DNA of 63,729 bases, counting the filler, from Reclinomonas americana ATCC 50394 (lineage: Eukaryota), in the NCBI GenBank assembly GCA_048213135.1. It is 4 parts of 3 records of this genome, joined end to end, with 100 filler letters (N's around TTAATTAATTAA, not from the genome) between each part and the next. Parts side by side here need not be neighbours in the genome. Positions count along the whole stretch, not along the records: positions 1 to 19,785 come from PS015643.1; positions 19,886 to 47,719 come from PS015643.1; positions 47,820 to 57,777 come from PS015644.1; positions 57,878 to 63,729 come from PS015646.1. The stretch is one strand, 5' to 3'. Under the pieces are notes generated by a model, which saw nothing but the letters and a program-made list of their open reading frames with translations, had not been told where the DNA came from and did no database searches. Shown here piece after piece: positions 237-60,663 of the stretch. Each line of letters begins with the position of its first letter. The first letter of the stretch is position 1. A program made the position numbers and the translations under genes.

Positions 237-1080
237 GAAGTGCTGATTGGCGCACTCAGCCGCGACGAGTGGGTCGCCAGGGAGGTGCAGCAGTATCTGG
301 TGCTGGATCGGTTGCCGGCACTGAATGAGATTCGCAATGGCTTCTGGCTGGCCGTGCGACACTTGGAGTTTTGTGTTGCAACCTGCCCAGCCCTTTCCCC
401 ATGCACTTGTCATACTCACCTTGTTGCAGTGCCGAGCACATTATGAAGCTGTTTGGCTGGCGCGATCTCGAGTACGCTCTCTCGCCTGGCACTCGCATCA
501 CTGTCGACGCCATGGTTGGCTGCGCTTGCTTCTCGACCTCCTCTTTCTGTAATATATGCTGACGCGCGTGTGTATTCGCACAGATGGCGCAAGTGTGCAC
601 CGAAGGCCCGTCGTCGCTCAGCCTGGTGGCGTGGCTGCGTCGTTGCGTGGGCCTCAGCACTTTCACAGGACCACACATGCTGTCTCGCTCACCTTTGAGT
701 GCATGCAGAGCTGTTCTACACATGGGTCCTGAACGATCCGCAGCGGTGCCTCGAGTTTATCGAGCTGACCACCGGTCGCCGCCGTTGCGTCTTGCGCTCT
801 CACGAGGAGCATGTATTGTAGTGCATGCAATCTCACTCCCCCCAACGCACTCCGCCCAGGCATTCCCACTGGTCGCGTTCCGCAGTGCAACCAAATTCAG
901 ATTACCATGTCCTCGGATATTCGTGCACTGGTGTGCGCCAACCGACAAGTGCTGTTGCCGCTGGTGCGGACGGGTGATGCTTTTGCGCAGCTGATTGAGC
1001 AGAAACTGGACTCGGTGTACGGCAACATCATTGTCGTCAAGGAGCAACGCAAGCGTAACCCGTACGCCAACAGGCGCTGA
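237..1080 (+). CDS. HECT-like E3 ubiquitin ligase, C-terminal exons (5' part outside window)
   Basis: Spliced exons read YLVLDRLPALNEIRNGFWLA / HIMKLFGWRDLEYALSPG / LFYTWVLNDPQRCLEFIELTTG / DIRALVCANRQVLLP...IEQKL. These follow the HECT pattern AFREGF..LF..ELE..; FW.....FL.FVTG; AHTC.N.L.LP. Putative catalytic Cys at 934-936; stop TGA at 1078-1080. Confidence 0.7.
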
Positions 1081-1281
1081 GGTGACAACAGTTTAACTAA
1101 ACGATGGCATTTCCTAAACAAAGGGCACAATTGTATTCCATTCAGAACCTAACAAGAACAGAGAGATAGACAATATGTGTCGGCATTGCGCGACACGAAG
1201 AACTATAGCGAAAAAGACATAAGACCAAAACATACAAGAGACACAAATACAGAGCGAGAAGAGACACGCCTTCTGGAGTCG

Positions 1282-4200
1282 TCACTTTGCTGTTGGCGAC
1301 AAAGACGACAACGAGGTGGGGGTAGAGGTGCGTGTAGACCTCGTCCGCCGAGTGGCACACAAGTCGACACATGAGAGGACCAGCTTGCGACAAATGTGGC
1401 GCAGGTCGGCCGCCACATGTGCACCGTGACGCATGCTGACGATCGGCGCAAACGAATCCGAGTTGGCGAAGAGTTGCGCGAGTTCTGCGTCGTGCAACAC
1501 GCCTTCGAGAATGCGACTGACATACGATGCCGTCTCCGAGTCCGAGCTGTACGAGATCAGCATGTGGGCCAGGCGTCCGAGACCGTCGGCGCGCATGAAA
1601 CGACGGAGGTAGTCGGACTTGAATGTCGGCTGCGTCAATATGGTATCGAGCAGGTGACACACGGTCTGCGCACTGTCGCGATCCACCACCACCGTCTGAT
1701 TGGGTTGCATGGCTTCGCAGATGATCTCCAGCCCCTCGGCGGCAACAAACTGCGCCGCTGGAGGCGCGGTCGTCGGTCCGAGACCTCTCGCATGCAACAA
1801 CACGGCAATGAATCTGGTGGCCTGCACAAAGAGCTCCACTTCGTCGGCCGCCCACGCCAACTGCAGCAGCTGCACAAGTGCAGCAATTGCGCCGCAGTCG
1901 ACAAAGAGTGCACACAGCGCTGCATCTACACACATTTCCCACGGAGATGAGAAATGAAGGTGCAATGACGACGACAGAGGCACACGCAACTCTCAGGTCG
2001 CTGCAGAACGTCGCCCAACTCGATAAATGTCGACTCCATCATCATTTCGTCCTCCTCCCAATCGTCTCTCTTCGGGGCGTCGGCCACGCGACGCAAGATG
2101 GCGGCCGATTCATTCCACACACCAATGGCGGCACGAACGCCATCACGGCCGCACACCACGGTTATAGCGTCGATGCGGATTTCTGCAGGTGGTAGAAGGT
2201 ATGGAGATGAGGGAGGAAAGGGAGAGAGATTGACAGAAGACGCGAGCGAGCGAGGAATCAGCAACATTTAAGGGGGAAAGGAGTCAATTACGACGTCAGA
2301 AAGAGAGAGAGTGCGTGTGTGTAAGAGAGAGAAACAACAATCATGGCATCGAATCGGCCTCTCAAGAACAGCGATAATAAAAGCCATGAGGAAGAGGACA
2401 AGTCTTGTGATGCATCGCAACTGCGAAAAATGCACATAGGAGCCAGGGCACGTAGCACGAAGGCGGTGTGGGGAGAGTGCGCAAAACCAACCTGCCGGGC
2501 AGCAGCGCACGAGCATGTGCCAAATCAGCTCCTTGTAAAACAAGTCCACTGTGTCTGATTCCAGCAGCGAGTGTAGTAGCCGCAAGAGTACTATGCGCAG
2601 CGCGAGTGGTGAGCCAGCACTGCCACTCACCGTCGATCGAAAGAGTCACGTTACCTTGGTGACCGTGAAAGCATTCAACAAAAACGCGAATCAGTTCGAG
2701 TGACGCTCGACTCCGAGGCGCTGAGGAGGACACAAAGTTGCGGTGAGAAGAGGGAATGACCGCGACGGAAGTGTCACTCCAGACGCAACGTGACATGATG
2801 GCAGCGTTGAGAATCTGCAACGCAGGCTCGAGGCCGCCGTATTGTGGTGGTCGCAACACATTGTTCGACAAGAATGTGAGCAGCACCTGCAACCCGTCGG
2901 CCGCAAAGAATCGGCAAAACTGTTGCGGAAGGAAGCGCAGAGCGGAACCGAGGGTGGTCCATGCTTGCCAGAGCGCGAGGCGCGGAGCCGAACTGCAAAG
3001 AAAGAGAATGAGCAGACAGTGGCGTGCGCTGTTGTTACAGACACAAAGAGGCACGCAACGTGTTGCCGATAACAGACAAACACAATTCAATGCCACTGCT
3101 GGTCACGTACTCCTGAGCAAACGATACTCCGGCTGTGCACCACAGGCGAATGAAAATCCCTTCACTCCCCTCCTCGCAAAGGCGCCAGAAATATGACGTA
3201 CCGCGCACGTACAACCGGAGCACGTTGAGGGCCACTGTTAGAGTCTCCCAATTGCTCGTTGCGAAACTCTGCTGGACACAGCGCACCACGTCGGCAACAC
3301 CGTACACGCCAGTGAGCATCACCACACTTGAGTCGGTCAACAGTGCTGCGGCGAACAGGGGGATAAGCCAACGGGTCAACATGATGATGATCGCAGCTAA
3401 ACGCAACTTGGAGACGGGGTCGCCTCAGTGAACATGGTGGTCAGCACGGTGGCCAACGATTCCAACGCATTCGCACTCGGCACCACATTCCTCTCCAGCA
3501 GGTGGCGCAGGTGGCTGCCGAGTGTCTCGATGAGACTCAGCCCTGCGACCGCACACAAATCGTCAGAGGCAATCTCTCTCTCTCTTTTCTCTCCCCCTTT
3601 CCTCCACGGTCGCAGACGCAACATCGCCCACCACGCGCTGTGGGAGTCATCACAGACAGCATCATCTCGGCCGTCTCCACCACCTGTCACTCGCGACTGT
3701 GATGAGCATTGATCACGGTCGATCCCTTTTCCCCCTCTAGCTCTCACCCTTGGCGATTCGACGGCACTCTGTCGCAGAATGCACAACACGAGAGGCAGGA
3801 AATCTGCCGGCAGCACCTCGAGGCATGCTGCACGAACGCACTGGAGCACGGCGAACGGCACGACGGGCAGAGTGGGGACCAGCTTCGCCAAATCCGCCCG
3901 CACCATGTTCATCTCCGCCAATTCGTGCTCCGTGAGGGCCGAGCCCACGGGCCCCGCCAGCACCAGCCCCACCAGTTCGGGCAAACACAGCAGGCGACAG
4001 CCCTGTATGCAGAGCTTGCGCAGCGACTTGGGCAGCTGTTGCACATGCTCGCTCAGCGACTGTATCGCGGTCAGCCGTAGGTCGAGCGATTGCAGTGAGC
4101 GCGGGAGTTTCGACCAGTCCAAGAAGCCGTGAAGGCCCGGGTTGCCCGACAGGTTCAGCTCGGTGAGTCGCGAGTCGAAGCAGGAGGCCTGCGTAGCAGA

Positions 4201-5930
4201 TTACCACAACAAATAGGAGAAAGAGAGCGGGAGGCAGATAGATGCTGCACGCAACATCCAACAGCACCAATGCGCTTGGCGGTTTGACAGGGTGATGCAG
4301 CTGCGGCCATCCGGTGGACTCGGTCGCCGGAATGCAGCCGACCAGGGAGAGGCGCAGCAGGCGAGGGAAGCAGCGCTTGGCGGCGTGCAGAGTGTACGTG
4401 ATGCGGCGCAGGGAGGGACCGTCGGCGACGGACGGGAGTGTCTCGGTGTCGGCGGACTTGATCATTTCTGGGCGCGAGAGGAAGTGAGCGAAGAGGAGGA
4501 GCGGGGAGAGACATCGCAGTGACAGACCTTCACATGTCCGAAACTCCATAAGCAGCTGCGAAGAATACGGAATGGTCAGCGCATGAAGGATGTGGTGAGA
4601 AGAAGGAATGCCTGCGCGCAACTTCCACCAATGCCGACTCCACAAAGGCGCAGAATTGGCGCGAGGTGGTCCACAGAGCGTTGAAGTCGTCGATGGTGAG
4701 GTAGGAGAACACCTGCAACACGCGCGAGGAATGAGAGTCCGACGCATGCCAAGATTCCGACAATCAGGCTTCTCTCACGACCGACGGTGAGAGAAGGAAG
4801 GAAGAATATCACATTGCGACAACATGGATGTGCCACGTGTCAGTTTCTTCATGGAATGCGTACACGACGCTGCATATACAAGGGGAGGGAGGGCGGAAGG
4901 AAGAGAGATGGGAGGGCAGTGATACAGAGAGGCAGAATGAGAGCAGGAGGGCACAAAGAAGACGATCAGCCAAGATCCCGACAATCTGTGACAACATGCG
5001 TCTCGCATAATTCAATCTCTCTCACGCCTGACAGACGAGTGACACGTGTACAGAAAGGAATGAGACACCAGGAAAGGTGCAGGGAAGCGCGGGAAACGAG
5101 ATGCATCCACGAAGATCAGCGTTGACAATCAACCAAGAAGATCCCGACAACCCGCGACATCACGGCTCTCACACAGATGTCGATCGCCCTCAGACGAGTG
5201 ACACGTGTACAGGAAGAACTGAGAGAGCAAGAGAGTGGCAGAGAGAGAGGCAGGGAGGAGCAGGAAACGGAATGCATCCACGAAGATCCCGACAATCCGT
5301 GACGACATGGATCTCACACAGATTTCGATCTCTCTCGCCTGAGACACGAGTGGCACGTGTACAGGAAGGAGTGAGAGAGGCAGAGAGGTGCAGAAAGGCA
5401 CAGGAAAGCGAGTGCGTCCACGACAATTCCGACATGGATCTCACCAATCTCTTCTCTCCTCTCGCTTCCCTCCATCGCACCGCACCGAGCATGAACACAG
5501 CGAGAACCCTCTGCCACTCTCTCTCTCACACACACACGCGAGGAGAGACACAAGGAGACACCCACACAAGAGAGACCGAACAATGCGAAGTGTTCGACTT
5601 CTCTCTCTCTCTCTCTCCTCCCCACACACTCACCAGCTGCCAACACTCCACAGGCAACCCGCGACTCAGCAACTGATCACTGACCCAATCCATCAACACC
5701 ACCGGTGCACCAGTGGACGACGATGACATTCCCACAAAAGTCGATGAAGAAGAAGAACAAGGAGGTGCCTGCTGCATCACTGCATCGCCCTCATCGTCGT
5801 CATCGTTGTCACTGAGATCATCATCGTTTTCTTCATCGTCGTTGAAGGCGTCGACATCCACAGGAGCATACACAGTTCCACTTTTGTGTAGTCGGTGACT
5901 TTGATGGAGAAGAGGTTGCTCGTCGTCCAT
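1282..5930 (-). CDS. F-box + LRR + ARM/HEAT-like helical protein (multi-exon)
   Basis: Exon 1 (5930-5634) spliced to the exon starting at 4712 gives the F-box LPVECWQL|VFSYLTIDDFNALWTTSRQF. LRRs follow (LTELNLSGNPGL..LQSLDLRLTAI..LRKLCIQGC), then Leu-rich helical exons. Introns I traced are phase-consistent to the TGA at 1282. Confidence 0.7.
4960..5445. repeat. Degenerate tandem repeat (~150-170 bp unit, about 3 copies) inside F-box gene intron 1
   Basis: Recurring aagatcccgacaa..gtgacacgtgtacag..atgcatccacgaagatc blocks. Confidence 0.8.
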
Positions 5931-10100: not shown

Positions 10101-10206
10101 GTGTTTGGCGACCAGTGTGCACCGCTCCTCGTGATCATGTACAACCTCGCCATTCGTGTCCGTGGAGGCGGCACCAGCGCCGCCGACGCCGAGCGGCGGT
10201 TCCAAA
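7101..10206 (+). CDS. TPR array (~24 x 42 aa, kinesin-light-chain-like) of NLR1; contig placed in inverted orientation
   Basis: Uninterrupted ORF with consensus AEAERLYREVLALRREVLGDRHPDTLxSMxxLAxC and 23 HP-type linkers. The start (T)AT CAC GCA CGA joins flush and in frame to the minus-strand end at 10952. Confidence 0.9.
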
Positions 10207-13900: not shown

Positions 13901-14426
13901 GAGTTGGACGAGGGGAAGGAGGAGGAGGAGAGAAGGAATCCCGCGACCTCTCACCAGCCTCGCACTCCAGCAGTCGCTCGGCGAGTCGCTCGGCCTCTGC
14001 GACACGGCTGGGGAACGGGAAACCATCCAGCTGGCCCACGTTTTTGAACACAACTGCCTCATTCATAACATTGGCGGCTCGCATAGAGTTAGCTCTGTTG
14101 ACAGACAGCAGGAGATGAGTGAGCGCTCGCACGAGCATACATGCATGCATATGCACACACAAACACACACACACACACACGCACAAGCACACGCACAAGC
14201 ACACTCGAAAGCATGCAGATGCACACAAAGGAAACGCTCACACACACACTCTCTCACATACACTCTCTCTGTCTCTTTCTCTCTCTCTCACACACACACA
14301 CTCACTCACTCACTCACTCACTTACTCACACACACACACTCACTCTCTCTCTCTCTCACAGAGAGAGATGTTGACACATACACTCGACATGGAGGCACGC
14401 AACTCTTCATCGGCGATGAGCGACAT
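10952..14426 (-). CDS. NLR1: STAND/NB-ARC-like P-loop NTPase, N-terminal part (no effector domain)
   Basis: ATG at 14426 (MSLIADEELRAS). Walker A GEGGSGKT at 12840-12817, Walker B VLLLDNV, sensor-1 LVIVTTR, and a YGVHD (MHD-like) motif. Collinear with the paralog at 43983-47719. Confidence 0.85.
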
Positions 14427-14690
14427 TGAGGGAGTGAGAGAGTGCTTGCGTGCTCGTTAGATTCCGTCGGAGAAATGCGTCCTGCAACTTCACGTCCACA
14501 CTCACTTCGTTCCTCGCGCGATCGTCCCTTCTGTCTCTGTCTTCTCTCGCTTGCTATTATGCTGTCCTCTGACTTTCTGCCTTCTGCAGCTTTTCATTGA
14601 GTCCAGCACAGGAAAACCAACCAATCGATGTCGCGATCGTCTGGTTGACACAGTTCGCCAGTGGCCTTCAGCACACACAGGCTCCAGCAC

Positions 14691-14918: not shown

Positions 14919-17014
14919 GGTGGTGGTGGTGGTGGTGGTGGTGGTGGTGGATGTCGTTGGTGCGTATCTGAGTTGCTCACCGTCGACTTATCGCGAGAGA
15001 AGAAGCGGCGACAGCTTCATGGAGATGCAATAGGTTCACGGTTGCGGAGCTGTGCATTGCCTTGCTCAGCTGTTCCTCCTCCTCCACCTATCACCGCCAC
15101 CCGCCGACCTGGGCCAGTACTTCTTCATCGGCTGTCGACCTCCACCACCGCACTTGCGCATCCTCCAACACGAAGCAGCGCAACACAAACATGGGCAGCG
15201 GCTCCCCACAGTCCTCTTCGTCTCCGCCGCCGCCATCCACCACGCGCAGCATCTCCTCCAGTGCATCCAACGCCTCCTTGGTTGCGTCCCGCTCAGCAGC
15301 GGCACCTGCAAAGTCTGGACTCCACACGGTCAACAACAAAGTGCATGTAGTGCACGCAGGAGAACTAGAATATGACGGAACTGGGCGCCCACAAGAAGCA
15401 GGTCCCGTTGGAGGCCGCCGACACGACGTAGTTGTCGGGCGTGCATGCCACGGCCGTGACTTGGGCCGCGTGGAGGGGAAACACGCAATCCTCGCGACCG
15501 CTGGTCAAATCCCAGGCGCGGATGGTGCCATCTATTGAGGGGAAGGAGGAGGGGCGGGGGGAGGAGAAAGAGAAGAGTCAAAAAGGGACATGAGAGGGAG
15601 ACGAAGAACGGTGAACTATGGTGGCGCGTGAGTGACAATTGAAAGCAGTGACAGAGAAAGAGAAAGCGAGACAGTGAGCGAGAAAGGCGACATCAAAGCA
15701 GAGTAAGATGTGGAAACGGAAAGCAAAAACAGCAGCGTTCTCGGCTCGCTCTTTCACTGCACTCAGAGACCATCATTCACCCTCTCTCTCTCTCGGGCAT
15801 ACACATCTCATTCCCTGCTCGAGCTCAATACTCAGCCTTCGCGCTGTGCACTGTTAACCAGACACCGCAGCAGGCGAACGAGAGAGAACGAGGGAGTGCG
15901 AAAGACGACATAAAGGCGCAGTGAGAAGTGGAATCGGAAAGCAAGGAGAGGCGAGAAAACGGCGAGAGTGAGTGAGCTGCAGCGTTCTCTTGCCCTCTGC
16001 CTCGCTCTTTCACTGCTCATTCACTCCCTCCCTCTCTCTCTCTGTACTCATTTGCGTGCTCAATGCTCCACCCCTCTCGTTGCTGTCAGCAACTCACGAC
16101 AACCGCGCCCTTCTTGTCAGCCTCAACATGTCTCCCTCTCCCTCTCCCCTCTCATGCTCTACTGACTCTTTCTCTCTCTCTCTCCCTCCCTCTCCCTCTC
16201 TCCCTCCCTCCACCCTCCTTCCCCTGTCCTCCCACCACTCACCCTTCGACCCGCTCACCACAAACCGCCGATCCACCGTCACCGTCACCGACACCACCGC
16301 CTCACGATGCGCACTCCCCATCATCATCTCCCGCCTGCCGCCCGTCTCCAACGAGTGCACATGCACCGAACCATCCACCAAGCCCACCACCACCGTCAAA
16401 TCATCCACCAAACCCAGGCAACACAGCTCACGCACACACGGCACCCTCCGCACCACCTCCAGCATATTCATGCGATACACATGCACCTCCGGCTGCGCCC
16501 ACCTCGTCACCGTCGCCACCATCACAAACACACCATCACTGGTCACCCGCGCGTCGCGAATCTGTCGCGCAGCCGGAATAACGACCCCACGCACCTTCTT
16601 CCCCGCACGCACAGTCACCAGCGCGCCCGGTTCCATGCAATCGCGATGCCCGTGCGCAAATACAACTGTGTTGCATTCACTACTGCTCACCGCCAGTGCC
16701 ATGACCGACTGCTGTCGACGACCGGGGAAGGCCCACACACGCGACGTTGTATCCCATAAGCACACGCGATCACCGCCAGTCAACACCTGCGACGTCGACG
16801 CTGGCACAAAGGCAACTCGCGTGACTGCTGCATCACTGACAACAGCAGAGTAGAGCACGTGCGAGGAGTGCCGCTCAAAGACGCAGAGATGACCGCCGGT
16901 GGTGCCAGTGGCGATGCGCTGACCGCATGAGGAGACGGCGACACAGAGCACATGATGTGGTGCAGGTAGATCGAGAGGGAAGCTGCGAGTGGCCGCGGGC
17001 ACAGTGACGCTCAT
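14691..17014 (-). CDS. WD40-repeat protein with C-terminal extension
   Basis: VLCVAVSSCGQRIATGTTGGHLCVF; VLTGGDRVCLWD; VSGSK|DGTIRAWD across intron 16242-15532. The extension beyond 15381 depends on a GTTCCGT donor; otherwise the gene stops at TAG 15365. Confidence 0.7.
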
Positions 17015-19571: not shown

Positions 19572-19829
19572 TTGGAGGGAAAGGGAGAGAGAGGGAAGGG
19601 AAATGAAGGTGCAATCGTGATGCAATGGGGGGAAGGGAGAAGAGGAGAGGGAGAAGATAAGGCGGGAGGGATGGTGGCTATTGCGCCTTGGGTTGGCACT
19701 GTGTCACGACAAACACTCCATGTGCACCTACCGTTGTGCCTTGCCTTCCCCTCCTCCTCCTCCTCCTCCTCTCTCTCTCTCTCTCNNNNNNNNNNNNNNN
19801 NNNNNNNNNNNNNNNNNNNNNNNNNNNNN

Positions 19830-24439: not shown

Positions 24440-27400
24440 CGCACACGTTGCTGGTCTCTGCATTGGCTGCTGTCGCCGGCACGGTGCTCTGCATGCAAAA
24501 AGAAGAAAAGTCTGTCATCTCCTCACGAGCTCCCCCTTCTTCTCATCGATCACATGCCTTCAGCGTGCACAAATTCATGCCAGACGTGTTGGATGCCGCA
24601 GAAGCATCAACGAAGGTCCACGATCGGCACTGTGTCAAACGGTCGCACGCTTCACAACATGCCACCTCGCTTGCAGAAGCCGACACACCCAAGATTGTGC
24701 CGCCTGGTCGATCCACTGCCTCGAACTGGCACACCTCCAACGCCGCTACTCAGTGCAACAGAGAATGAGACGGTAGAAGATGCGAACTGGAGCCCGCAAA
24801 AGTAGCGCAACGAGCAACAACTCCGTTCTGCACCGTGGAACAACCGGCATTCGTTGCTACGCGAACATCAATCAAAATCAGTACTCAGGTCATCAACCAA
24901 CCTGCAACTGGTACACGTACGTGCACACACACAGATGAGAGAGAGAGAGAGAGAAAAGCAAGAGCAACAGAGCACGCCATCGTTGACAGATGTTCACTGA
25001 GTACCCACTATCAAAGAGAGGGAGAACGGGCGAGAACGGCAGACTCTCCCAATCAAAACAGTGTGTGCGCACGCCCGTCAACCTCGATCGCTGAGTTGCA
25101 ACCACCTAAAGCCTGCTCTTTCCTCTCTTGGCGATTAATATTTTGTGAGCATTCCTCGCAGCTCTTTCCTCTCGCCCCCCGTGACACCGCTCTGCACATC
25201 ACCCTTCCCTACTTTACTGACTGCCTGCGTCAACAGCTGACATCGTCCGTCGCCTTGCATCCTCCCCTCTTCACCTGCCCTTCGCTACCCATGGAAGTGT
25301 GCCACTTGTCATCTCTCATTCCCTTCCCCTTTCTTTGTCACTCCCCTCCCTTCCCCAAGTGCGCACCATAGACGATCATGAACTGCTTGGTGTACGTCAG
25401 CGCCCCGTCGCTCACTTGCACAAACACTTGCAGTCGCCGACTCAGTGGCGGAGCCACCGATAACGTCAGCTGATTGCCACCCACGATGCTGAATAGAGCC
25501 GCATGCACGCCACCCGCAATGCTGAATGTCGGCGTCAGTCCCGTGTTGAGATCCACCATGCTCAGTGTGCCCACGGTGAATGGCACCGGCGCACTCGAGT
25601 ATGTCTGCGCGCCCGACAGCAGAATGTCGCTCGGGCCAACACTCCCTGCACGCCTTAATCGTTCAGCTGACACGCATACACACTCATTCACACACATGCT
25701 TGCATACACACAGACATATGTAAACAGAGAGAGAGAGAGAGAGAGAAGAACAACATGAAGGCTATGAACACACAAACAAACAAGCAAAACAACAGCTGAA
25801 TGTTCCCTGCGCTCTCCCCTCCCCCCCCATTCCTCACCAATGGCGAATGCAGACACCGCTACGTATCCTTTGGCAGGCGTCCATCGCACGCACAGCTCGT
25901 ACGTGCCAGTAGCTGCACCCGCCGCTCCAATCGTCAGCGTGATGCTGGTCGCACTCCCAAAGGCACTGCTGACGGTGGTGCTGGCCACGGCTGTTGGCGG
26001 CGTCGTGGCTGCACAAAGCGGAGTAGCCAACACATACGCCGCCGTGTCTGCCGAGTTGTTGAGCAGTCCAGTACCCGTCAGTGTAATCAACTGGCCAGCC
26101 AGTGCCGACACAAAGGTGGCCGACAGCGACGTTACAGTGGGTGCTGCATGCAAATGCGCAAAGGTCAATTAGCATAATTGCATCACAACGCCACACAATC
26201 TCAACTCGCACACAACCAGCAATGTTGAGCGTCTGATCGAATGACATGGCCGGATTGCCATTGTCGGTCGTGCGCACAATCACCACCAGCGACGTCGTCA
26301 CCCCCGCACTCGCAAATTGCAGCTGGTTGCCAGACACAATCGTCACCAGCGCGCTGCTCGCACCACCCACCACCGAATACGTGAACGCCTGCTGCGAGTC
26401 CACATCAGTCGTGCTCATCGTGCCAATCGCCAGTCCTGCCGTGCTGGGCGGGATGTACGAACTCGCACTCAGTATCACCGCCGTTGGTGCATTGTTCACT
26501 GGCGGGACGGCAAGGTCAGCATCCACACCTTCATGATAATCAATCAACCATCCACTCACCCGAAGTCACATTGAACGACTTGTCGACAAACATGGGCGGC
26601 GTGCCGTTGTCGAACGAGCGGATCGAGACGGCCAGTGGACTGCCCGACTGGCCCGCCGATGTAATCTGCAGCTGTGCGCCACTAGTTGAAAACGTGCTCG
26701 CATTCGCTCCTCCAGTGATGATGTACGTGTACAGCTGGCTCCCATCACTGTCCGTCGTGCTCAAAGTACACACGGGCATGTTGGCGGTCGACGGGGCCAC
26801 AAACGTGGCGGAGCAGACAATATCGGTCGGCGTCGAGTTTGAGGTGGTGAAGGACATGGTGGAGCCGATGAGGGTGCTGGGCACGGTGGAAGTGGACAGG
26901 GCACGGAAGTAGTACGTCCAGTTGGCGGCAAGTGAGGTGAGCGACGCGGTGAGGGTGGTGCTGGAGGCGACGCCAGAGGATGCCGGGGTGGCGGAGACGG
27001 TGGTGGAGCCAATGGTCAGTCGGCGGATGGTGCTAGAGTCTCGAACTGAGAGGACAGATATTGAGAACCAAAATACTGATCTATCCCTTGCATGATCTCA
27101 TACCTGCAATAAACAGTGCGGATGTTACCGCATCGTATGCCATGAGATGCTGCACTCACAAATGAGCTCAGCGTCTGAAGCGAACAGCCACACACAATAA
27201 ATGCAGCGAACCGGCCAAGTGAACTGAGCAGTAGTGAGTGGGCTCCCGTCAGCGGCTCCGCTCACTCCCGCAGCACCGGCGATGGTTGTCACGGCACCAG
27301 TGCTGATGACGATTTGGCGAATCGTTTGGTTGCCACCCTTCAAAAGACGGCATCAGAGGACTCGAAACACAGAGCAACCAAATTCGCGACGCAACATCTG

Positions 27401-30400
27401 AAACGTAGAGAACGCCTCGGCCTCGATCCAACTGGATGCCAATCGGGTTGTTGAATCGAGCGGCAGTGCCGGTGGCATCTACGAAATCTGGGGACCCGAT
27501 CAGCGACCCCGCCAGAGTTGATACAGTCATCGCCAGCATGTCGATCACACGAATACAATGTGCCGATCGATCAGCTGCTCATCACCAAGGTTTGAGTGTA
27601 AAACATACCCACACTCTCTTTCNNNNNNNNNNNNNNNNNNNNNNNNNNNNNNNNNNNNNNNNNNNNNNNNNNNNNNNNNNNNNNNNNNNNNNNNNNNNNN
27701 NNNNNNNNNNNNNNNNNNNNNNNNNNNNNNNNNNNNNNNNNNNNNNNNNNNNNNNNNNNNNNNNNNNNNNNNNNNNNNNNNNNNNNNNNNNNNNNNNNNN
27801 NNNNNNNNNNNNNNNNNNNNNNNNNNNNNNNNNNNNNNNNNNNNNNNNNNNNNNNNNNNNNNNNNNNNNNNNNNNNNNNNNNNNNNNNNNNNNNNNNNNN
27901 NNNNNNNNNNNNNNNNNNNNNNNNNNNNNNNNNNNNNNNNNNNNNNNNNNNNNNNNNNNNNNNNNNNNNNNNNNNNNNNNNNNNNNNNNNNNNNNNNNNN
28001 NNNNNNNNNNNNNNNNNNNNNNNNNNNNNNNNNNNNNNNNNNNNNNNNNNNNNNNNNNNNNNNNNNNNNNNNNNNNNNNNNNNNNNNNNNNNNNNNNNNN
28101 NNNNNNNNNNNNNNNNNNNNNNNNNNNNNNNNNNNNNNNNNNNNNNNNNNNNNNNNNNNNNNNNNNNNNNNNNNNNNNNNNNNNNNNNNNNNNNNNNNNN
28201 NNNNNNNNNNNNNNNNNNNNNNNNNNNNNNNNNNNNNNNNNNNNNNNNNNNNNNNNNNNNNNNNNNNNNNNNNNNNNNNNNNNNNNNNNNNNNNNNNNNN
28301 NNNNNNNNNNNNNNNNNNNNNNNNNNNNNNNNNNNNNNNNNNNNNNNNNNNNNNNNNNNNNNNNNNNNNNNNNNNNNNNNNNNNNNTTTTCTCTCTTGTA
28401 CACACCGACGTAAAGGCGATTGGCCACTAAATCCAATGCCACGCCGTTCGGTCCACCAAACTTCGCCGTAGAACATGATCCATCGACAGTGCCTGCTGAC
28501 CCAATCGTACCGCAGTAGGCGGTGACCTCGCCACCATAAGTGACCTGTGTAGATAGGGTGGCAGGGTCTGATCATGAATATATTTACACACCGAATCGAG
28601 GCAGAGATGCATGCGCACACCTTTCTTACAGCATTGTTCGCCCATTCACCGACGTACATGACTTTGTTGTTAGAGTCGACAACCATTCCATGCGGACTAT
28701 TGAACTGCGCGCTTGATCCGATTCCATTCGCAGTACCCGCAGTCCCGTTGCCAGCCAGGGTCGACACAGATCCGGCAGCAGTGCTCACGCGGATTGCGTG
28801 GTTTAAAAGCTGTAACACGTGAACGCGATCGTGAGGTATACGCACTCGTCGCCGCGAAATTCTTCGAGAATCTCACAAAACGTCTACGCAACGTCAGCAA
28901 TGTACAAGTACCCGGTGTTCAGGTCGATCGACAAGTCAGTGGGCCAGCTAAAACGAGCTGCAGCGCCGATTCCGTCGACCATGCCTGATGTACCAACAGT
29001 TCCTAGAAACGTTGACGTCACCCCGCCACTCGTCACACGCCGAATTGTGTGATTGATTTGGTCGCACACGAATGCGGTGCCCGAAGCATCAAACGCAATG
29101 CACTGCCCAGTTGAGAAGCACGATGTGAAACACGGTACTACGATAACGCGTGAGCTCACGGTGCGATATATGAACCGTGGCGAGATTAAAACGAGCAGCA
29201 GTGCCAGTGCCGTCTGTCGAACCAANNNNNNNNNNNNNNNNNNNNNNNNNNNNNNNNNNNNNNNNNNNNNNNNNNNNNNNNNNNNNNNNNNNNNNNNNNN
29301 NNNNNNNNNNNNNNNNNNNNNNNNNNNNNNNNNNNNNNNNNNNNNNNNNNNNNNNNNNNNNNNNNNNNNNNNNNNNNNNNNNNNNNNNNNNNNNNNNNNN
29401 NNNNNNNNNNNNNNNNNNNNNNNNNNNNNNNNNNNNNNNNNNNNNNNNNNNNNNNNNNNNNNNNNNNNNNNNNNNNNNNNNNNNNNNNNNNNNNNNNNNN
29501 NNNNNNNNNNNNNNNNNNNNNNNNNNNNNNNNNNNNNNNNNNNNNNNNNNNNNNNNNNNNNNNNNNNNNNNNNNNNNNNNNNNNNNNNNNNNNNNNNNNN
29601 NNNNNNNNNNNNNNNNNNNNNNNNNNNNNNNNNNNNNNNNNNNNNNNNNNNNNNNNNNNNNNNNNNNNNNNNNNNNNNNNNNNNNNNNNNNNNNNNNNNN
29701 NNNNNNNNNNNNNNNNNNNNNNNNNNNNNNNNNNNNNNNNNNNNNNNNNNNNNNNNNNNNNNNNNNNNNNNNNNNNNNNNNNNNNNNNNNNNNNNNNNNN
29801 NNNNNNNNNNNNNNNNNNNNNNNNNNNNNNNNNNNNNNNNNNNNNNNNNNNNNNNNNNNNNNNNNNNNNNNNNNNNNNNNNNNNNNNNNNNNNNNNNNNN
29901 NNNNNNNNNNNNNNNNNNNNNNNNNNNNNNNNNNNNNNNNNNNNNNNNNNNNNNNNNNNNNNNNNNGAGAGAGAGAGAGAAGAGAGAGAGACTGACCTGT
30001 GGTGATGGTGAACGCCTTGTCGAAGAACAGCGCCGGTGATCCACTGTCCGTCGACCGAATCGTCACCGCCAGCGAGCTGGTCGCCTGCCCCGCCGCCACA
30101 ATCACCAGCGACTGACCGCTGATCGCAAACACCCCGCTGTTGGCGCCACCGACGATCGAGTACGTGAACGACTGGCTTGTGTTGCTATCCGTCGTCTGCA
30201 GTGCACACACGACTTGATTCGCCACCGACGGCGACACATATGTCGTCGACGAGCAACTAATATTGGTCGGAGCCACATTGGCCAAAGTGGAAAAGGACAC
30301 GGTGGCGCCATTGACGGTGCTTGGCGTGGAGGTGACACCGACGGCGCGATAGTAGTACGTCCAGTTGCTCACCAATCCACTGAGCGAGGCGGTAATGGAA

Positions 30401-31574
30401 GTGGCTTGGGAGCCAGTGGAGGTGGCAGGTGTGGCCGACACCGATTTCGATGCCAGCGAGAGGCGACGGATGATGTGCGTGGTGTAATCGGCAATGAGCA
30501 CCGATGCAGTCGATGCATCGAAGGCGAGGTGAACAGGCGAGTTGAAGCGTGCCACAGCCAGAGCACTGCCGTCGGCTGATCCACTCACGCCCGCCGCACC
30601 ACCAATGGTGCTCACGGACGAGTCTGACACTCGGAGTTGCCGCACGGTGTTGTTGGCAGACTGCGTGGACCAGAGGACAGTCAGAATCGAGAAAAGAGAT
30701 GCTCAGAGAGTGTGGTGAGTGGAAAGATACACAACATCGGCAACATAGATGACGTTGTTTCCTGCGTCGTAAGCCAGTCCGATCGGCGTGTTGAATCGGG
30801 CAAACTTTCCTGAATCGCGTGTACCCACAGCTCAGCGCGAACGTGAAGAACCAGATCGGGTACCCACCAGATCTAGTTGGATCGGATGAACTCACCGGCG
30901 GCATCCGTGGATCCAGACAAGCCGCTTGCTGAACCCGCCACCGTTCCCACCGTCATCGCCAACGTGTCAATGGCGCGTATGGAGTTGTTCACACGGTCAG
31001 CTGCAATGAAGTACAAACAATGAGGACGTGCGGGGTGTCATCTCTGCGCTTCCCCTCTCCGGATCCCCTATCTACACTCACCAACATACAGCGTGGAACC
31101 GACGAGAAGCACGCCGTTGGGACCACCGAATCGCGCCACTCCCGCGCACGCACCATCGGCGGTGCCACTCACGCCCGTAGAGCCACAGAAGGTCGTCGCC
31201 GCACCGGCATACGTCACTCGCCGAATCGTTTTGTTGAGCCAGTCGCCCACATACACTACCTGATTCGCGGCATCCACTGCCACTCCCGCAGGCTGGTTGA
31301 AGGAGGCCGCTGTGCCCGTGGCATCGGCACTTCCCGACGCTCCATTGCCCGCCAGTGTGGTGACCTCTGCCGCTGCAGTGACAGCACGCACGGCGTGGTT
31401 TGTCAGCTGTGAGAGACGCAGAGTCAGAGAGTCAGCAGAATGTGCGTCTGTCATACGTGGTCTTCTCTCCCACAACACACTCACATCGGCGACATAGACA
31501 GTTCCCGTGGTTTGATCAATGGCGAGGCCAGCGACACTGCGAGTATGTGTGAGTGCGTGAAGAAGAGAGAGATA

Positions 31575-46900: not shown

Positions 46901-47719
46901 GGAGTGGTTGACTACAGGAGAACGTGAGAGGGAGCTGTGTCTGTATCGTGATGCTGTGAGGGATGTTGTCCTGTTTGGACTGGCACGTGCTGACGAGTAT
47001 AGCATCAACGATGACGTGCTGTGCGATATTCGACTGTGTCTGCGAGTGATGTGGAACGACCTACTGTCTGTAGTACAGCCTCGGTGGAACGGAAGTTGCA
47101 TCTCGCCTGCTGTTGCAAAGATGCGATTCGATGGCGTTTCGCGCTTGGCGCAGTTGGTCGAGGATCGCCTTCCCGTCCACGATTTTAGAGGCGATGTGGC
47201 GGTGGCGAGTGCGACGTGGATTCGTGAACAGAGCGGTGACGGAGTGGATCGCGGCGATTATCACAAACGAGCGCGGTGCGCGGGAGGATTATTGATGAGC
47301 GCACGCCGTGCTGGTGATGCCGCGGACTATCTGGAAGGCCATCTGAAGACTGTCGAAGCTGGCGATGATGTGATGCTGGTCGCTGACCTGCGGCACGTAC
47401 TTGCGACTTGTCTGCGGGACGTGGGCCGTCTTGCCGAAGCCGAGCGACAGTATCGGGAGGTGCTTGGTTCGAGGCGTGAGGTGCTTGGTGACCGACATCC
47501 TGATACACTGACATCAATGGTCGGTGTCGCCAGGTGCATGTACGCCACCGGCAATCTTGTCGAAGCCGAGCGACTGGTTCGCAAGGTGCTGGAGTTAAGG
47601 CGAGAGGTGCTTGGTGATAAACACCCGGGTACGCTATGGTCCATGAGCGCTGTCGCCGCCTGCATCGCAGCCGGTGGCAACCTTGTCGAAGCTGAACGAC
47701 TGCATCGTGAGGTGTTGGC
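43983..47719 (+). CDS. NLR2: HEPN (DZIP3/Swt1-like) + STAND NTPase + TPR
   Basis: Phase-consistent exons: NYIRATKVV..ALRAL; SFDISWLTSVLLN; LREVRNGFMH (RxxxxH at 44900-44917); Walker A GEGGSGKT at 45359-45382; ILLLDNV; LVIVTTR; YGVHD; TPRs from ~47400. Confidence 0.85.
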
Positions 47720-47819
47720 NNNNNNNNNNNNNNNNNNNNNNNNNNNNNNNNNNNNNNNNNNNNTTAATTAATTAANNNNNNNNNNNNNNNNNNNNNNNNN
47801 NNNNNNNNNNNNNNNNNNN

Positions 47820-54400: not shown

Positions 54401-56364
54401 CCATACTGAATCTCATCATCAAGTCTTCGATTGCACCAGGAGGAACGACAAAGAAAAGAAACAACCACCTCACCCTCTCGCGCCTTCGTCTCTCCCTTCC
54501 GTCTTCCCTTCTCCAATTTCTCACCCTTCGCCCTTTGCCCTTTCTCCCCCTTCCCCCTTCCCCCTCCCCCTTCCCCCACTATTTCCCCCTTTGCCTTCCC
54601 CCCCCCATCTCCCTCCCCCTTCTCCCCCTTTCCCCCCTCCCGCTCACCTCCTCCACCGGCGGCAACTGCGAGTACCACTCATACGGCTCATCCCCCTGCC
54701 ACTCGCCACCAATCTTCCCCTCCTTGTTCACATAGATGGCCCGCTGGTGAACACGCATGCACGCCTTGAGCTTGCCAGGGAGCACAAGGTGCATCTCCAA
54801 ATTCTGCACGCAAAGTGAGCTCCCTGCTGTCACCCACCCCGTTCCCACCCCCAACGCACCAACTTCGACAGCGAGTTCTTCGGGTGCAGCAGCGGCCGAA
54901 TGGCCACCACCCGGTAACCCTCGTCGCGCATCTCCGCCGACGAAAAGTGGTCGAGCTTCTCCTGCAGAATCTCGTCCGAGTAGATCTCGCGCAAAAAGTC
55001 GCGCAGCTCCGACAACGGCACCTCGAGGTGGCCGCAGTATGCGCGGGTGATGCGCTGCGCCAAGTGGTGAGGAAATGCGTGAAAAGTGAGACTCTTGCGT
55101 CACAGACGTGCCTCCATAATGTACTGCCACGATGGCACTTGCCGGAACATGTCGTCCGGCATCACACCGGGTGTCCACGTCGCCGGGTCGACTCTACGGC
55201 AAGGTGAATCTCAACAGCGGGGTCTTTCACACTTTCAACAACAGGAAGGCGCAACTGAGGCACAACCCGCTCTCCAATGTCGACCCAATCCTCCAACGCG
55301 GGATCCTCCGCCCCAAACATACCGCAAATGAGCAGCGGCTGATCCTCGTCGGCCTGCGGCTCGAACTGGTATCGCGTGTGCACCATGTGGGCGTGGAACA
55401 TGGCCTGTCGTTCGACTCGCATGACCTGGACGAGGAGGTGAGAAGGGGAAGGAGTGGAAGAGAGGGGAAGGAGGGGAAGGAGGGGAAGGAGGGAGAAGGA
55501 GGGGAAGGAGGGAGAAGGAGGNNNNNNNNNNNNNNNNNNNNNNNNNNNNNNNNNNNNNNNNNNNNNNNNNNNNNNNNNNNNNNNNNGAGAGAGAGAGAGA
55601 GACGGAAGAAGGAAGGTAAGGAGGGCACTGTCGAAGGCATACGACAGTGACAAAGTGAGATATCAAAGACTCAATCAGCAACATAGGGGAGAGAGAGAGA
55701 GAAAGAGAGAGATAGAGAGAGAGAGAGGCGGGGGCAGGTCAGGAGGGCACTGAGAGAGGAGTGACAAGATCGGAGAGACAGAGTGAGATTTCAAAGAACT
55801 CAATCAGCAACAAAGGAGAGAAAGAGAAGAGAGAGAAGAGAGAGTGTGCGTGAGAGAGAGAAGGGGGCAGGCCAGGAGGGCACTGAACGAGAGAGAGGGG
55901 GAGAGAGAGAAAGACAAAGACCGAGATATCGAAGACAACTGACCAGCACATTCTCCGCATTCTTCGCGCACACCACTGGAGTCACCCGAATGCTCTCCCA
56001 CTTCTCCGCATGCTCCGATCCATCCTTCGGCTTGAAACACTGTCACAAACATAACAATAAACAAAAAGAAGAAAAAACACTCTTCACAAGAGATATTATT
56101 ATTAATCATCGCAACATCAAAGAAACCCTGCGCCCATGACGTGTACCGCTGATACACCGCAAGCATCTGACTCACGTGGATGCCATTGAGTGCCTGCAAC
56201 ATGCGCTCAACACGCTGCACACAGACACACAGAGAGAGACTGGTGAGAAAGAGAGACATAAGAACAAGTTAGTGAGTGCTTGCCTTGACATAGCGCGTCC
56301 ACTGTGGTGTCATCAGTGAGTCGGGTATGTCGGCGCCTGTTGGGAGAGAGGCGAGAGTCGACAT
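48554..56364 (-). CDS. Transglutaminase-like + EF-hand pair + CaaX protein, paralog B
   Basis: ATG at 56364 (MSTLASLPTG). GYGQCGSF (Cys 51968-51966)..GIP..HISAAIWAEGIG|WMAAE; KFRQYDE|DETGKLSKAKF; DLDGDGE|IGESDF. Exon order is the same as in paralog A. Confidence 0.75.
50310..50690. repeat. ~143-bp tandem repeat duplicating an exon 3' end plus donor (3 copies)
   Basis: cacct(t/a)catca(t/c)actgcc(g/c)gaacttctccacc at ~50366, 50509 and 50650. Confidence 0.8.
51100..52730. repeat. (AAC)n/(AAG)n/(GAG)n microsatellite-filled introns of paralog B
   Basis: Directly visible; they flank the catalytic exon at ~51805-51979. Confidence 0.9.
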
Positions 56365-56758: not shown

Positions 56759-57626
56759 TTATACAACCAGCGTCAGCGCCGAGCGGTCCTCGTTGACCAG
56801 CCACATGTTGAGCTCCTCGTACTCGTCGAGGCAGGCTTGCAGCAGCTTTTGCGAGAGGCCTTGCGCCGTGAGTTGCGGGATGATGTCGGCCAGTCTGGGA
56901 GGGGGGAGAGAAAAGGGGAGGGGTGAGTGGTGGGGGAGAAGGGAAGGGAGGGCGAGAGGGTGGGAGGAGGGGAGGGAGCACTCACCGCACAGTCCGACTG
57001 TCCTTGTCCTTGGCCTCCTGCATGATAATGTGGTAGATGCGCGAGATCGGGTCTTGCTTCCTGAAAACAGCCCCCCACGAATGAGCAATAACGCACACAC
57101 AAACAAAGATGGGGGCGCCCCGAGTCGCATCCACACTCAACTGCATGCGCCGCGTGTCATCCTCGTACAGTGACGACTTGGAGACATTGATGAGGCGTAC
57201 GGCCTCTTGCACATCGTCGGGCGCCACCAGATCCGACAGATTGAGACGAGCGCGGGCCTGTGCCAGGCGCACCATGGAGAGCAGCGAGCGTGCCGTGGTG
57301 TACGAGTGCTCCTGCTCGCGCTCGTCAGTGCGCAGCTGCAGGTACGCCGAAATGAGCGCGTCCTCGGCCTCCGGCGGCACCAGCGGCTCGAACGAGCGAG
57401 CACGCGCAATGAATGCCCTGAGCGGAGCGGCAGTGAGTGAGTGGACAGGAAACTGACGAGAGGAAGCGAGAAAAATGAAGACCTCATCGTCGCCGCGTCC
57501 ACCAGCTCGTGCATGTCGCGCCTCTCCGGCGCCACTTGCGTACGATGCACGTGCGTCACGTGCTTGGCCAGGTTGTAGTCGGCCTCCGTGTTTGGTCGGT
57601 CCACCATGAGGAAGAGGACGTCGAAA
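56759..57626 (-). CDS. MCM7: DNA replication licensing factor MCM7, 3' exons
   Basis: FDVLFLMVDRP...D..LAKHVTHVH; MRAFIARAR; YTTARSLLSMVRLAQARARL; DVQEAVRLINVSKSSL; C-terminal CLDEYEELNMWLVN..LTLVV*. Confidence 0.9.
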
Positions 57627-57715
57627 CTGGAAAAAAAAAGGGAAGGGGCGAGTGAGATCAACGAGACAGGAGAGTGAAAAGGAAAGGGGATGAAACAGAA
57701 GAGAAGGAGGCTGAG

Positions 57716-57766
<51 letters not shown>

Positions 57767-57959
57767 AGAGAGACGACNNNNNNNNNNNNNNNNNNNNNNN
57801 NNNNNNNNNNNNNNNNNNNNNTTAATTAATTAANNNNNNNNNNNNNNNNNNNNNNNNNNNNNNNNNNNNNNNNNNNNGATTGTTGTCCTCTGCACATGCA
57901 TGCACACCCATGTCAGTCTCCTTCTTCTCCTCAACCCAAAACTGGGGGGAAAACTCACG

Positions 57960-60663
57960 TTCGCAGAGGTAACTGAGCAGGCTGGTCTGGTCCGAGGCAG
58001 CGCACGACGCCGTCGCACTCGCCTTGCCCTGGAACTCTGGCGTAAAGTCGTCGACGAGGCACATGGAGAGGTTGTCGGCGCGGCCGTAGCTGGCCGACTC
58101 GATCTTCACGTGGTAGCCGTCGGGGTAGCCATTAGTCGGTGTGCAGTCGACCAGCATGGCAGAGCCTTCGCACACCGTCTTGGAGTGCAGCGGGTACTTG
58201 TCGACGCACTGATAGTCCGTGGTCACGCCCAGTGGCTGTGGGGAGGAGAAGGGCGATGTGAGTTTCTTGCTGTCACAACGACGACAGCGGGGGAGATGGC
58301 TTTGCGACTCACCAGCTGCTCACTGTTGCCATTGTCGCCGTCGTCGTCATCGTCGCCGTCGTCACCATCATCGCCGTCGTCGCTGTTGCAGGCATCGGCA
58401 AGCTGCTCCGCATAGTTCTTCCAGTTCAACACCTTGCAGGCGGCAAACACCGGACCCTGCAGCTTGCGCTTGGCCTCCTGCGCGGCCTTGACTTGCGCGT
58501 CGGCACTGGACTTGGCCTTGCTGGCGGCCACCACTGCCGCTTGCGCGTCGTCGGCCTTCTTCTGTGCGTCCTTGGCCTGCTGCTGCGCCGCGTCGGCGGC
58601 CTTTTGCTTGGCATCGGCGTCGGCCTGCTTGGCAGCCGCATCGGCCGCCTTCTTCTTGGCCTCCTCGTCGGCCTTCTTCTTGGCGTCGCCGGCCTTGGCC
58701 TTGGCGGCATCATCGGCCGCCTTCTTCGCGTCGTCAGCCGCCTTCTTCGCGTCACTGGCCGCCTTCTTGGCGTCGTCGGCAGCGTCCTTGGCGGCGGCAG
58801 CAGCCTTTGTCGCATCCGCGGCGGCCTTCTTGGCGTCAGCCGCCGCCTTGTTCAGGTCGTCGGTGGCCTTCTTGGCCGCCTCGCGTGCCTTCTTCAACTC
58901 CTCCGCGGCCTTCTTGGCGGCGGCCTCGTTCTCGGGCGACGCGTTGGCGCACTGCTCACGCAGCACATCCATGGCGTCGGCGCGGCACAACACCTCCAGA
59001 TTCAAGCACTTGCTGCGGCGGCACTCGACCACACACTTGCGCTGCGCGGCGGCCTTCTCGGCCTGGCACTTGGCGCGGCAATCGGCACCGCTCTTGCCAG
59101 CCGGGCACTCAGAGGCGCACTTCTACGAAGCGTGGGGGAAAGTGTGAGTGAAAGCGGAGAGAAAGGCGAGTGAATAGTGACGCAACTCTCTGACTGGTGG
59201 TGGCACGGCACGACTTGCGGCACGACTGGCCACACGTGCGGCAATCGGTGCGGCACTGCTTGCGAGCTGCGGCGCAGGCCTTGGGGGTCTGCGAACCGTC
59301 GGCCAAGCAGAGCGCGAACTGAGCGCGGCAGCGACGGCGGCAGGCGTGCTTGTCGAACAGCAGGCCGTGACGATCCTCGTCACCGTCCTTGTCCTTCTCC
59401 TTCTTGTCATCGTCGTCGCGGTCCTTGTCGTTGCGGTCGCCGCGCAGATTGGTGCTGCTGCTGCGGTCCGTGTCGACGAATGACTGCGACGAGAGCGGGC
59501 ACGTACCCGGCTCCACAAAGCCCACAGTGCTCTTCACCACCTGCACCGTGTGCATGGCGTCGCACTCGAGCGACAGCGGATCACTCGGGCACGTCACAAT
59601 CGAGGCACTGGTGACGCTGCTGCTCTGCACGTCGCGGAACACCAGGTCGCCCTGGTTCGCGCGGCACGCCCACGTGATGGTGAGCTTCTTGGGCAGGCCG
59701 GTGCAAGGGTCCCACCATGTGGTCGGCACCACGCAGCTCGACAGCTCGCGCGCCATGCACATCTCCACCAGGTTCAGGTACAGGTCCAGACTGTGTCGTG
59801 GGGGAGGAGGAGAAGGAGAGTGAGAAGGGAGGGGGAAGGAGAAGGGAAAGGGAGAGTGAGGGAAAGAGGACGAGGGAGAAGGGGAGAGAAGAGGGAGAAG
59901 GCAAGGATGTTGCAAGCACAGGATAAGACAAGAGGATTGAGAGGGAGCAGGGGGGAAGGCAGCACGCAGGGGAGGACGATGAGGCCAGCGAGAGAGAGGG
60001 GGGACAGGAGGAAGAGGAAGATGATGAGGAGGAGGAGAAGGAAAGGGCGGGAGAAGGAGAAGGGAGAGGAAAGAGACAGAAGGAGAAGACAAGAGGATTG
60101 AGAGAGCAGGGCGCAGGGGAAGGAGAAGAGGGCAGAGAGAGAGAGAAGGAGAAAACGAAGCAGAAGAAGAAGAGAAGGAGAAGGAAGAAGAAGAAGGAGG
60201 AGGAAGAGGAGGGAGATGGTGAGGAAGAAGAAGGAGCAGGAGAAGGAGGATGAAGAGGAAAGGGAGAGAAGGGAAAGAGATAAGAAGAAGGAGAGCGCGA
60301 GGAAGAGATGCTGGAGACAGATCCTCAGAAGGAGCGGAGATAGAGAGGGGGGTGACAGAAGCAGAGACGCAACGACGAGCACTCTCCAGCAGCCGTGGAG
60401 CCAATCTCGCGACCGCACTCGCCCTCCGCAGCCGGCCCAAACGTGGCCGCAGTGATGTGAGGATGGGCGTTGTCGGGGCACTGCAAGTTGATCCAAGGCC
60501 CGTCGGCACACGCCTGCGAGGTCGTCCATTGCACATCGGCGCGGGGTCGGAAAAACAGAGCGCGACCTGCCGCTGTTGTCGGCGGCGCATCCGAGCTGGC
60601 AACGGCCACTGACGCGAGCGCGATGATAAGCAGCACAACGGCCGCGCACGTGGCGGTCACCAT
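57960..60663 (-). CDS. Secreted protein with SUEL/galactose-rhamnose-binding lectin-like domains, a Cys-rich segment and an Ala/Lys/Asp coiled coil; 3' end lost in gap
   Basis: Signal peptide MVTATCAAVVLLIIALASVAVA; C......L.C......I..A.FG ... DPCTGLPKKLTITWAC; third domain VCEG...KIESASYGR; (KKAADDA)n at ~58470-58930. Confidence 0.7.

Follow-up and report, generated by a model that had tools for sequence, protein, structure and literature searches.

How does the spliceosome of Reclinomonas americana choose the first base of an intron whose opening word hardly pairs with the standard 5' end of the U1 small nuclear RNA (snRNA)? The question is raised by a stretch of 63,729 nucleotides (nt) of eukaryotic nuclear scaffold sequence from strain ATCC 50394 (GenBank assembly GCA_048213135.1), called the window here, in which the heptamer GTTGCGT recurs at putative 5' splice sites (donors). 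Reading frames, word statistics, and 3' signals indicate that a distinct set of short GT-AG spliceosomal introns, very probably genuine, opens with these seven bases. By predicted duplex energy, the conserved word is a non-site for standard U1. The window includes 6445 N in 17 gaps and amounts effectively to ~57 kb of sequence, and all intron results rest on this DNA sequence alone. Positions count along the window, and a minus-strand donor is given by the coordinate of the G of its GT. In donor words, lower-case letters are exonic and a slash marks the splice junction.

The initial annotation had listed 14 exact GTTGCGT sites and seven variants (4622, 30735, 56115, 57141, 14388, 44021, and 15381) as donors with one extra base, none of them preceded by an exonic G. 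All 14 exact sites are present, the seven variants read as stated, and G at the last exon position (-1) is absent at 21/21. The window holds five additional exact copies (14403-, 15281+, 18408+, 44006+, and 63509+). Altogether, 19 copies of GTTGCGT are found, compared with 8.46 +/- 2.97 in shuffled sequence, and at least 19 copies are reached in 0/100 shuffles. The hexamer GTTGCG is not enriched (45 copies vs 40.8 expected; at least 45 in 30/100 shuffles), indicating that the excess is of T after GTTGCG. A G at -1 is present at one of the 19 exact copies, 15281+, which is antisense to a coding exon.

Seven introns with this start interrupt a single gene, gene A:

1282..4712, minus strand: gene A, 12 exons and 11 introns, at least 816 codons, with an F-box-like start, leucine-rich repeats (LRR), and a long helical tail.
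4556..4622, minus strand: intron of gene A, 67 nt, donor ggaa/GTTGCGC.
4189..4255, minus strand: intron of gene A, 67 nt, donor ggat/GTTGCGT; the downstream exon has the Pfam LRR_8 match.
3543..3622, minus strand: intron of gene A, 80 nt, donor cgat/GTTGCGT.
3346..3407, minus strand: intron of gene A, 62 nt, donor ccaa/GTTGCGT.
2993..3059, minus strand: intron of gene A, 67 nt, donor acac/GTTGCGT.
2721..2789, minus strand: intron of gene A, 69 nt, donor tcac/GTTGCGT; the next exon, of 66 nt, is open in one frame only, and that frame matches.
1920..1990, minus strand: intron of gene A, 71 nt, donor gaga/GTTGCGT.

The introns of gene A are built from GTTGCG sites and the nearest good acceptors. 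Removal of the 11 introns (donor/length: 4622/67, 4527/60, 4255/67, 3747/64, 3622/80, 3407/62, 3059/67, 2789/69, 2654/64, 2491/309, and 1990/71) yields one open frame of 816 codons with its stop at 1282-1284, and the spliced frame is the frame with the best codon score in 12/12 exons. Seven of the 11 donors read GTTGCG[T/C]; the four others are aag/GTCTGTC (4527), agg/GTGAGAG (3747), aag/GTAACGT (2654), and cag/GTTGGTT (2491). The frame sets the donors modulo 3, and the exact donor follows because one word recurs 58-83 nt from the acceptor. At 1990, a TGA lies just upstream of the donor in the frame of the downstream exon, indicating that a splice is required there. The sole Pfam match in gene A is the LRR_8 match, which is weak, and its last exon, translated in the correct frame, has no relative among the longer proteins of a word-indexed collection.

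The word also emerges when donors are not specified in advance. The codon score is trained on eight Pfam-supported open frames, and its leave-one-out frame calls are right in 85-95% of 15-40-codon windows. A donor-blind gene model, which combines the codon score with the 3' signal and an intron-length prior and permits any GT as donor, predicts 65 introns. All same-phase GTs within the open frame of each predicted intron are taken as candidates, giving 213 of 6852 GT sites. GTTGCG is the most enriched hexamer among these candidates (9/44 copies, 1.37 expected, p=6.3e-6, 255 hexamers), and GTTGCGT is the most enriched heptamer (6/19, 0.59 expected, p=1.6e-5, 906 heptamers). The value for ordinary GTGAGT is 7/99 (p=0.034). 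Two-class expectation-maximization (EM) on the candidates was run from 40 starts, and all eight best-scoring ones converged to the same split, with 55% in GTG[A/C/T]GT and 45% in GTTG.G.; these shares are rough because the candidate set includes false introns. Within 50-130 nt, 8/19 GTTGCGT copies have both a branch word and YAG, vs 19% of all GT sites (p=0.019), a difference that is not significant over 588 heptamers. Taken with the frames of gene A, these results indicate that the GTTGCGT sites are very probably real donors and are not rare in the window.

Other approaches to the donors were of little use. Open-frame joining alone is uninformative in this GC-rich DNA, where any dinucleotide passes in ~20% of cases. 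With self-training, a codon model drifted onto repeats, donor-blind motif EM anchored at 3' sites locked onto codon periodicity, single-matrix EM returned a blurred GTG.GT only, and a signal-free gene model was too noisy. A 25-codon frame test agreed at some sites only, because the exons are short.

The same tests bear on whether the boundaries are misplaced, with the true donors being other in-phase GTs, GTTGCGT being an enhancer or a chance word, or some of the stretches not being introns. Against GTTGCGT as the exact donor, frame tests define a donor modulo 3 only, and other in-phase GTs are available at most sites, exactly 3 nt upstream at 642, 60373, and 34984, where GTC directly precedes the word. 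The donor-blind model itself picked other in-phase GTs at 639, 775, 3634, and 3077; moreover, the window-wide association with 3' signals is weak, and the stretch that starts at 57141 is in frame. However, the alternative GTs have no common word, GTTGCG is the recurrent start of 13 introns, with the acceptor 58-83 nt away, the enrichment among candidates reaches p ~1e-5, and the stop just upstream of 1990 calls for a splice. We therefore regard misplaced boundaries as very unlikely.

Beyond gene A, introns of the class are found on both strands:

642..708, plus strand: intron, 67 nt, donor cgtc/GTTGCGT, acceptor GCAG; another GT in the same phase begins at 639, 3 nt upstream.
784..859, plus strand: intron, 76 nt, donor cgcc/GTTGCGT, branch word CTCAC 25 nt before CAG; phase 1 upstream matches offset 2 downstream.
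27338..27395, minus strand: candidate intron, 58 nt, donor agat/GTTGCGT, acceptor AAG; frame-compatible.
28810..28892, minus strand: intron, 83 nt, donor tgac/GTTGCGT, branch word CTCAC 23 nt before CAG.
56040..56115, minus strand: candidate intron, 76 nt, donor tgat/GTTGCGA; frame-compatible, with no branch word found.
59123..59186, minus strand: intron, 64 nt, donor gaga/GTTGCGT, acceptor TAG; the 25-codon frame test disagreed.

The 642 intron belongs to a five-exon model at 231-1080, the frames of which agree with the codon score in 5/5 exons. A HECT C-lobe, guessed by eye in this gene, would have fixed the 784 junction but is unsupported by Pfam and PDB sequence searches. Read-through at 28892 meets an immediate stop in 2/3 frames. 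The 59186 intron is included in a five-exon model at 57879-60663, in which the frames agree in 5/5. The weakest member of the class is 27395, because its acceptor is not YAG. Among the remaining exact copies, 32468 and 43328 have no acceptor nearby (a repeat and a gap follow 43328), the sole prediction at 60373 is a 583-nt intron, and no intron context is seen at 18408+ and 63509+. At 34984, the reading frames are ambiguous.

We accept 13 GTTGCG[T/C/A] introns as the class and compare them with 20 other curated donors. The bases G1 T2 T3 G4 C5 G6 are present in 13/13 and T7 in 11/13, with no conservation past +7. Lengths span 58-83 nt with a median of 67 nt, compared with a median of 75.5 nt for the other curated introns. 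All 13 are GT...AG introns, with CAG or TAG as acceptor in 12/13 and AAG at 27395. In 10/13 class introns vs 14/18 other curated introns, a branch word CT[CGA]A[CT] is found 16-29 nt ahead of the AG; the class uses CTCAC, CTGAC, CTCAT, or CTGAT, and both words and distances are alike in the two classes. Branch word and YAG acceptor do not differ from those of other introns, so apart from 5'-end recognition the class is probably processed by the ordinary major spliceosome. In neither class does the start of the intron show a tendency to pair with its interior (mean z -0.79 for the class and -0.74 for the others).

The exon side sets the class apart. G occupies -1 at 0/13 GTTGCG donors, where C, A, or T is found instead, vs 18/20 other curated donors (Fisher p=1.8e-7), consistent with the earlier statement that most canonical donors here are G/GT. 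In the automatic set, G is at -1 in 0/7 GTTGCG donors vs 13/14 GTG[AC]GT donors. The other curated donors are mostly G/GTGAGT, with some G/GTGCGT, G/GTCTGT, G/GTAACG, and G/GTTGG. Further upstream, the 13 donors have G at -3 in 8/13 and A at -2 in 9/13, across differing intron phases. The recognised word may accordingly extend over ~10 bases, G-A-H/GTTGCGT, where H is not G.

The class accounts for 13/36 curated introns, or 16/36 when related forms at 57141, 30735, and 15381 are included. In an automatic model with a donor term, it accounts for 7/57 introns, and several gene A sites are missed by that model. The proposal of a common intron class is thus borne out for this window (7/11 in gene A; 13/36 curated). 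No description of a GTTGCG donor class was found in the full-text literature searched, a search that did not extend to subscription journals or to a genome paper on the organism.

A shared start word could in principle be inherited, if a burst of recent introner-like introns carried its own start word and landed at non-G sites. The clustering (7/11 introns in gene A and 2/4 in the neighbouring gene), the narrow range of lengths (58-83 nt), and the lack of preference for G at the insertion side would fit such an origin. In an alignment of the 13 introns, however, only GTTGCG and the final AG are common, with a mean column identity of 34% (one window). Since nothing else is shared, the introns are not recent copies of one element and do not resemble introners. 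Common origin, which we consider highly doubtful, would in any case address origin only, and the word would still need to be recognised.

To evaluate recognition, each 12-base site is paired computationally, in its best register of any kind, with the standard U1 5' end, AUACUUACCUG, as given in PMC4856993. At the 13 GTTGCG sites, the predicted energy averages -0.58 kcal/mol and nowhere improves on -2.0. For the 20 other donors, the mean is -8.45 kcal/mol (Mann-Whitney p=1.8e-6 vs the class), and random GT sites, at -2.4 to -2.5 kcal/mol, are predicted to bind more strongly than the GTTGCG class. The class pairing is near zero because the shifted helix is split where the C in GCGT lies opposite a uridine of U1. 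The class therefore has the GT-AG ends, branch words, and reading frames of major-type introns and lacks complementarity to standard U1.

The annotation had invoked the +1-shifted pairing known from mammals. Mammalian +1-shifted sites (Roca & Krainer 2009, as cited in PMC4856993) also have GU, an extra base, and then the +3 to +6 word, with G+1 in the slot of the exonic -1 G and the cut before GU. Those sites are rare, have AAGU, and pair well, whereas the class here has GCGU, has about zero pairing to standard U1, and is common in the window. In the bulge +2/+3 register (Roca et al. 2012, cited in PMC4856993), leaving a single U unpaired after GU would bring GCGU back into pairing frame. Unlike sites of that register, the class has negligible predicted stability on standard U1, and the helpful -1 G is absent in 13/13.

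Standard U1 could nevertheless act in a non-canonical register, through a +1 shift or a bulged U+3, with affinity supplied by U1C-type proteins and later U6 contacts. Shifted and bulge +2/+3 registers have been validated at human sites (PMC4856993), GTTGCGT differs from G/GTGCGT by one base over seven, and A at -2 (9/13) would pair with U10 in the bulge register. However, the mean in the best register, -0.58 kcal/mol, is below that of random GT sites, whereas a shifted human test oligo is listed at -6.5 kcal/mol; a human-type shifted or bulged duplex of usable strength is predicted at none of the 13 sites. In humans, the non-canonical registers together make up ~1.5% of validated sites, not a large share (PMC4856993). 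Furthermore, a -1 G would add a pair in the bulge register, yet it is absent in 13/13. The mammalian-type +1 shift on ordinary U1 is thus not supported by the predicted energies, and we consider recognition by standard U1 in any such register unlikely. The misfit is consistent with the other suggestion of the annotation, altered U1/U6 recognition or a variant snRNA.

In an inverse test, U1 positions 4-7 are varied through all 256 ends. The end that is best for the weaker-bound class is AUACGCACCUG, on which the predicted energy is -6.97 for the GTTGCG class and -8.79 for the other donors. On AUACGCACCUG, GTTGCGT is predicted to form a continuous helix with one 1x1 mismatch, which can be read as a +1-shifted register. 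We tentatively favour, at somewhat less than even odds, recognition of the class by an RNA of U1 type whose 5' end is GC-adapted and which would be either the sole U1 or a variant copy. Finding of the 5' end would then differ in that the end of this RNA is not the standard ACUUAC and has, for example, GC at positions 5-6. GUUGCGU would sit one base out of register, with G+1 in the slot of the last exonic G, U+2 mismatched, and UGCGU in a continuous helix. The -1 base would not be G because the intron's own G occupies that slot, making an exonic G unneeded. Cleavage would still occur before GU, by U6/Prp8.

Several points count against recognition by an adapted U1. To our knowledge, the U1 5' end is conserved across known eukaryotes. 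The altered U1 would be a fit to the data rather than an observation, and AUACGCACCUG also binds random GT sites better (-4.85 vs -2.41), making the predicted gain in specificity modest. The nearest-neighbour energies leave out U1C, other proteins, and pseudouridine. The comparison donors were picked from model output and by eye, and the contrasts in -1 base and energy may be inflated; against a background of 21% G, the depletion of -1 G is marginal for 13 sites. Within the window, no snRNA is found, as Rfam gives zero matches at gathering thresholds and low-complexity noise only at E<=10.

Introns of the U12 type begin with RTATCCTT and have the branch sequence TCCTTAAC 10-15 nt from the 3' end. 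The class here is like them in being a second class with a rigid, longer start word and no requirement for an exonic G, beside ordinary introns. It is unlike them in starting with GTTGCGT rather than RTATCCTT and in having the branch word CTSAY at 16-29 nt; neither U12 word is present in the 13 aligned introns.

This comparison bears on two further readings. Recognition could proceed without U1, the heptamer being read by another snRNA, by a sequence-specific protein, or by U5/U6 directly, in a lineage-specific route parallel to U11. As at U12-type 5' ends, the word is rigid and intronic, does without an exonic G, and does not fit U1; six bases are invariant in 13 introns with T at +7 in 11/13, and G at -3 (8/13) and A at -2 (9/13) lengthen the word to ~10 bases. 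However, branch words and distances are as in ordinary introns, no TCCTTAAC-like branch is seen in the 13 introns, and the proposal comes without a candidate RNA or protein. We judge it improbable. Alternatively, two systems would run in parallel, standard U1 serving (A)G/GTGAGT while H/GTTGCGT would have a dedicated snRNA of its own, either a paralogue of U1 or an unrelated guide with an ACGCAAC-type end. This arrangement also seems to us an unlikely one.

Three introns with related starts and two reference introns of MCM7 lie outside the class:

30661..30735, minus strand: intron, 75 nt, donor cgat/GTTGTGT; frame-compatible.
15306..15381, minus strand: intron, 76 nt, donor ccca/GTTCCGT, at the end of a WD40 gene; downstream offset-2 score 14.5.
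57061..57141, minus strand: candidate intron, 81 nt, donor tgca/GTTGAGT, in the MCM7 tail; the stretch is gapped against Porphyridium MCM7.
56895..56985, minus strand: reference ordinary intron of MCM7, 91 nt, donor gcg/GTGAGTG.
57418..57482, minus strand: reference weak-donor intron of MCM7, 65 nt, donor gag/GTCTTCA; predicted U1 duplex -4.2 kcal/mol.

At 15381, the upstream phase 1 is taken from by-hand translation of the exon that follows SGSK/DGTIRAWD, and the codon score preferred phase 2. The preceding junction of this WD40 gene, joining ...SGSK to DGTIRAWD, spans an intron of ~710 nt at 15532-16242 (minus strand) with donor aagg/GTGAGTG and GA/GAGG-type simple repeats; such long repeat-filled introns occur alongside a 60-90-nt majority. 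A full HMMER search with the 333-residue WD40 open reading frame returns generic WD40 matches only and no orthologue.

The stretch at 57141 is in frame without a stop, so the frame does not force its removal and the frame test is uninformative there. The donor at 57482 is the only GT in the phase needed for ...VDAATMR/AFIARA, and this weak gag/GTCTTCA donor indicates that donor words are loose here when the exon ends in AG or G. The MCM7 gene (56792-57670, minus strand) is represented by its C-terminal third only, which aligns with positions 573-837 in Porphyridium MCM7 (35-48% identity); a different gene lies beyond the linker at 57778-57877, and the remainder of MCM7 is not in the window. 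An exon search with MCM7 finds two proteins, Porphyridium MCM7 (39% identity) and one unnamed protein (38%), and a metagenome scan with MCM7 finds no relative.

The annotation had described the donors as GT-T-GCGT or GT-N-GAGT words with one extra base. The GTTGCGT part of this description stands, whereas the GT-N-GAGT part comes down to one in-frame GTTGAGT (57141) and the ambiguous pair 14388/44021. This pair belongs to inverted paralogous P-loop and TPR genes at 10955-14492 (minus strand) and 43900-47720 (plus strand). The GTTGCGT copies at 14403/44006 are in the same phase as the competing GTCGAGT/GTCGAAT at 14388/44021, and both alternatives are conserved between the two paralogues. Exon DNA of the two genes is ~72-80% identical and intron positions are conserved; the genes also have in common a mini-exon of 25 nt, and the sequence after it reads aag/GTTGTGAGT in one gene and aat/GTTATGAAT in the other.

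Pfam searches of the 150 longest open frames identify few genes in the window, namely TPR_10/12 arrays, the WD40 protein, the C-terminal third of MCM7, and TIG, NHL, and LRR pieces. In the searched protein collections, none of the tested genes has a close relative or an annotated copy that could confirm the junctions. In a TPR_10/12 array at 7104-10205, both strands are open for >1000 codons, and the gene model placed five spurious introns antisense to the array, which advises caution on frame-based intron calls there. The window is a set of joined contigs; the linkers at 19786-19885, 47720-47819, and 57778-57877 are 100 bases each and read N44-TTAATTAATTAA-N44. The 186 bases before the first linker (19598-19783) are repeated at 19886-20070 with 99.5% identity, resembling an unmerged contig overlap.

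For annotation of this genome, gene finders trained on G/GTRAGT will mis-splice genes like gene A, in which 7/11 donors are of the GTTGCG class. More generally, the 5' end of U1 is thought to be the nearly universal basis on which the first base of an intron is chosen, and a rigid start word that a standard U1 should not bind, carried by a sizeable share of introns, would be informative either way. If two systems do operate side by side, they would parallel the U1/U11 split but would have evolved independently in this lineage, and a second guide RNA would represent a new recognition route. If it is U1 itself that has changed, its 5' end would be co-evolving with the donor words.

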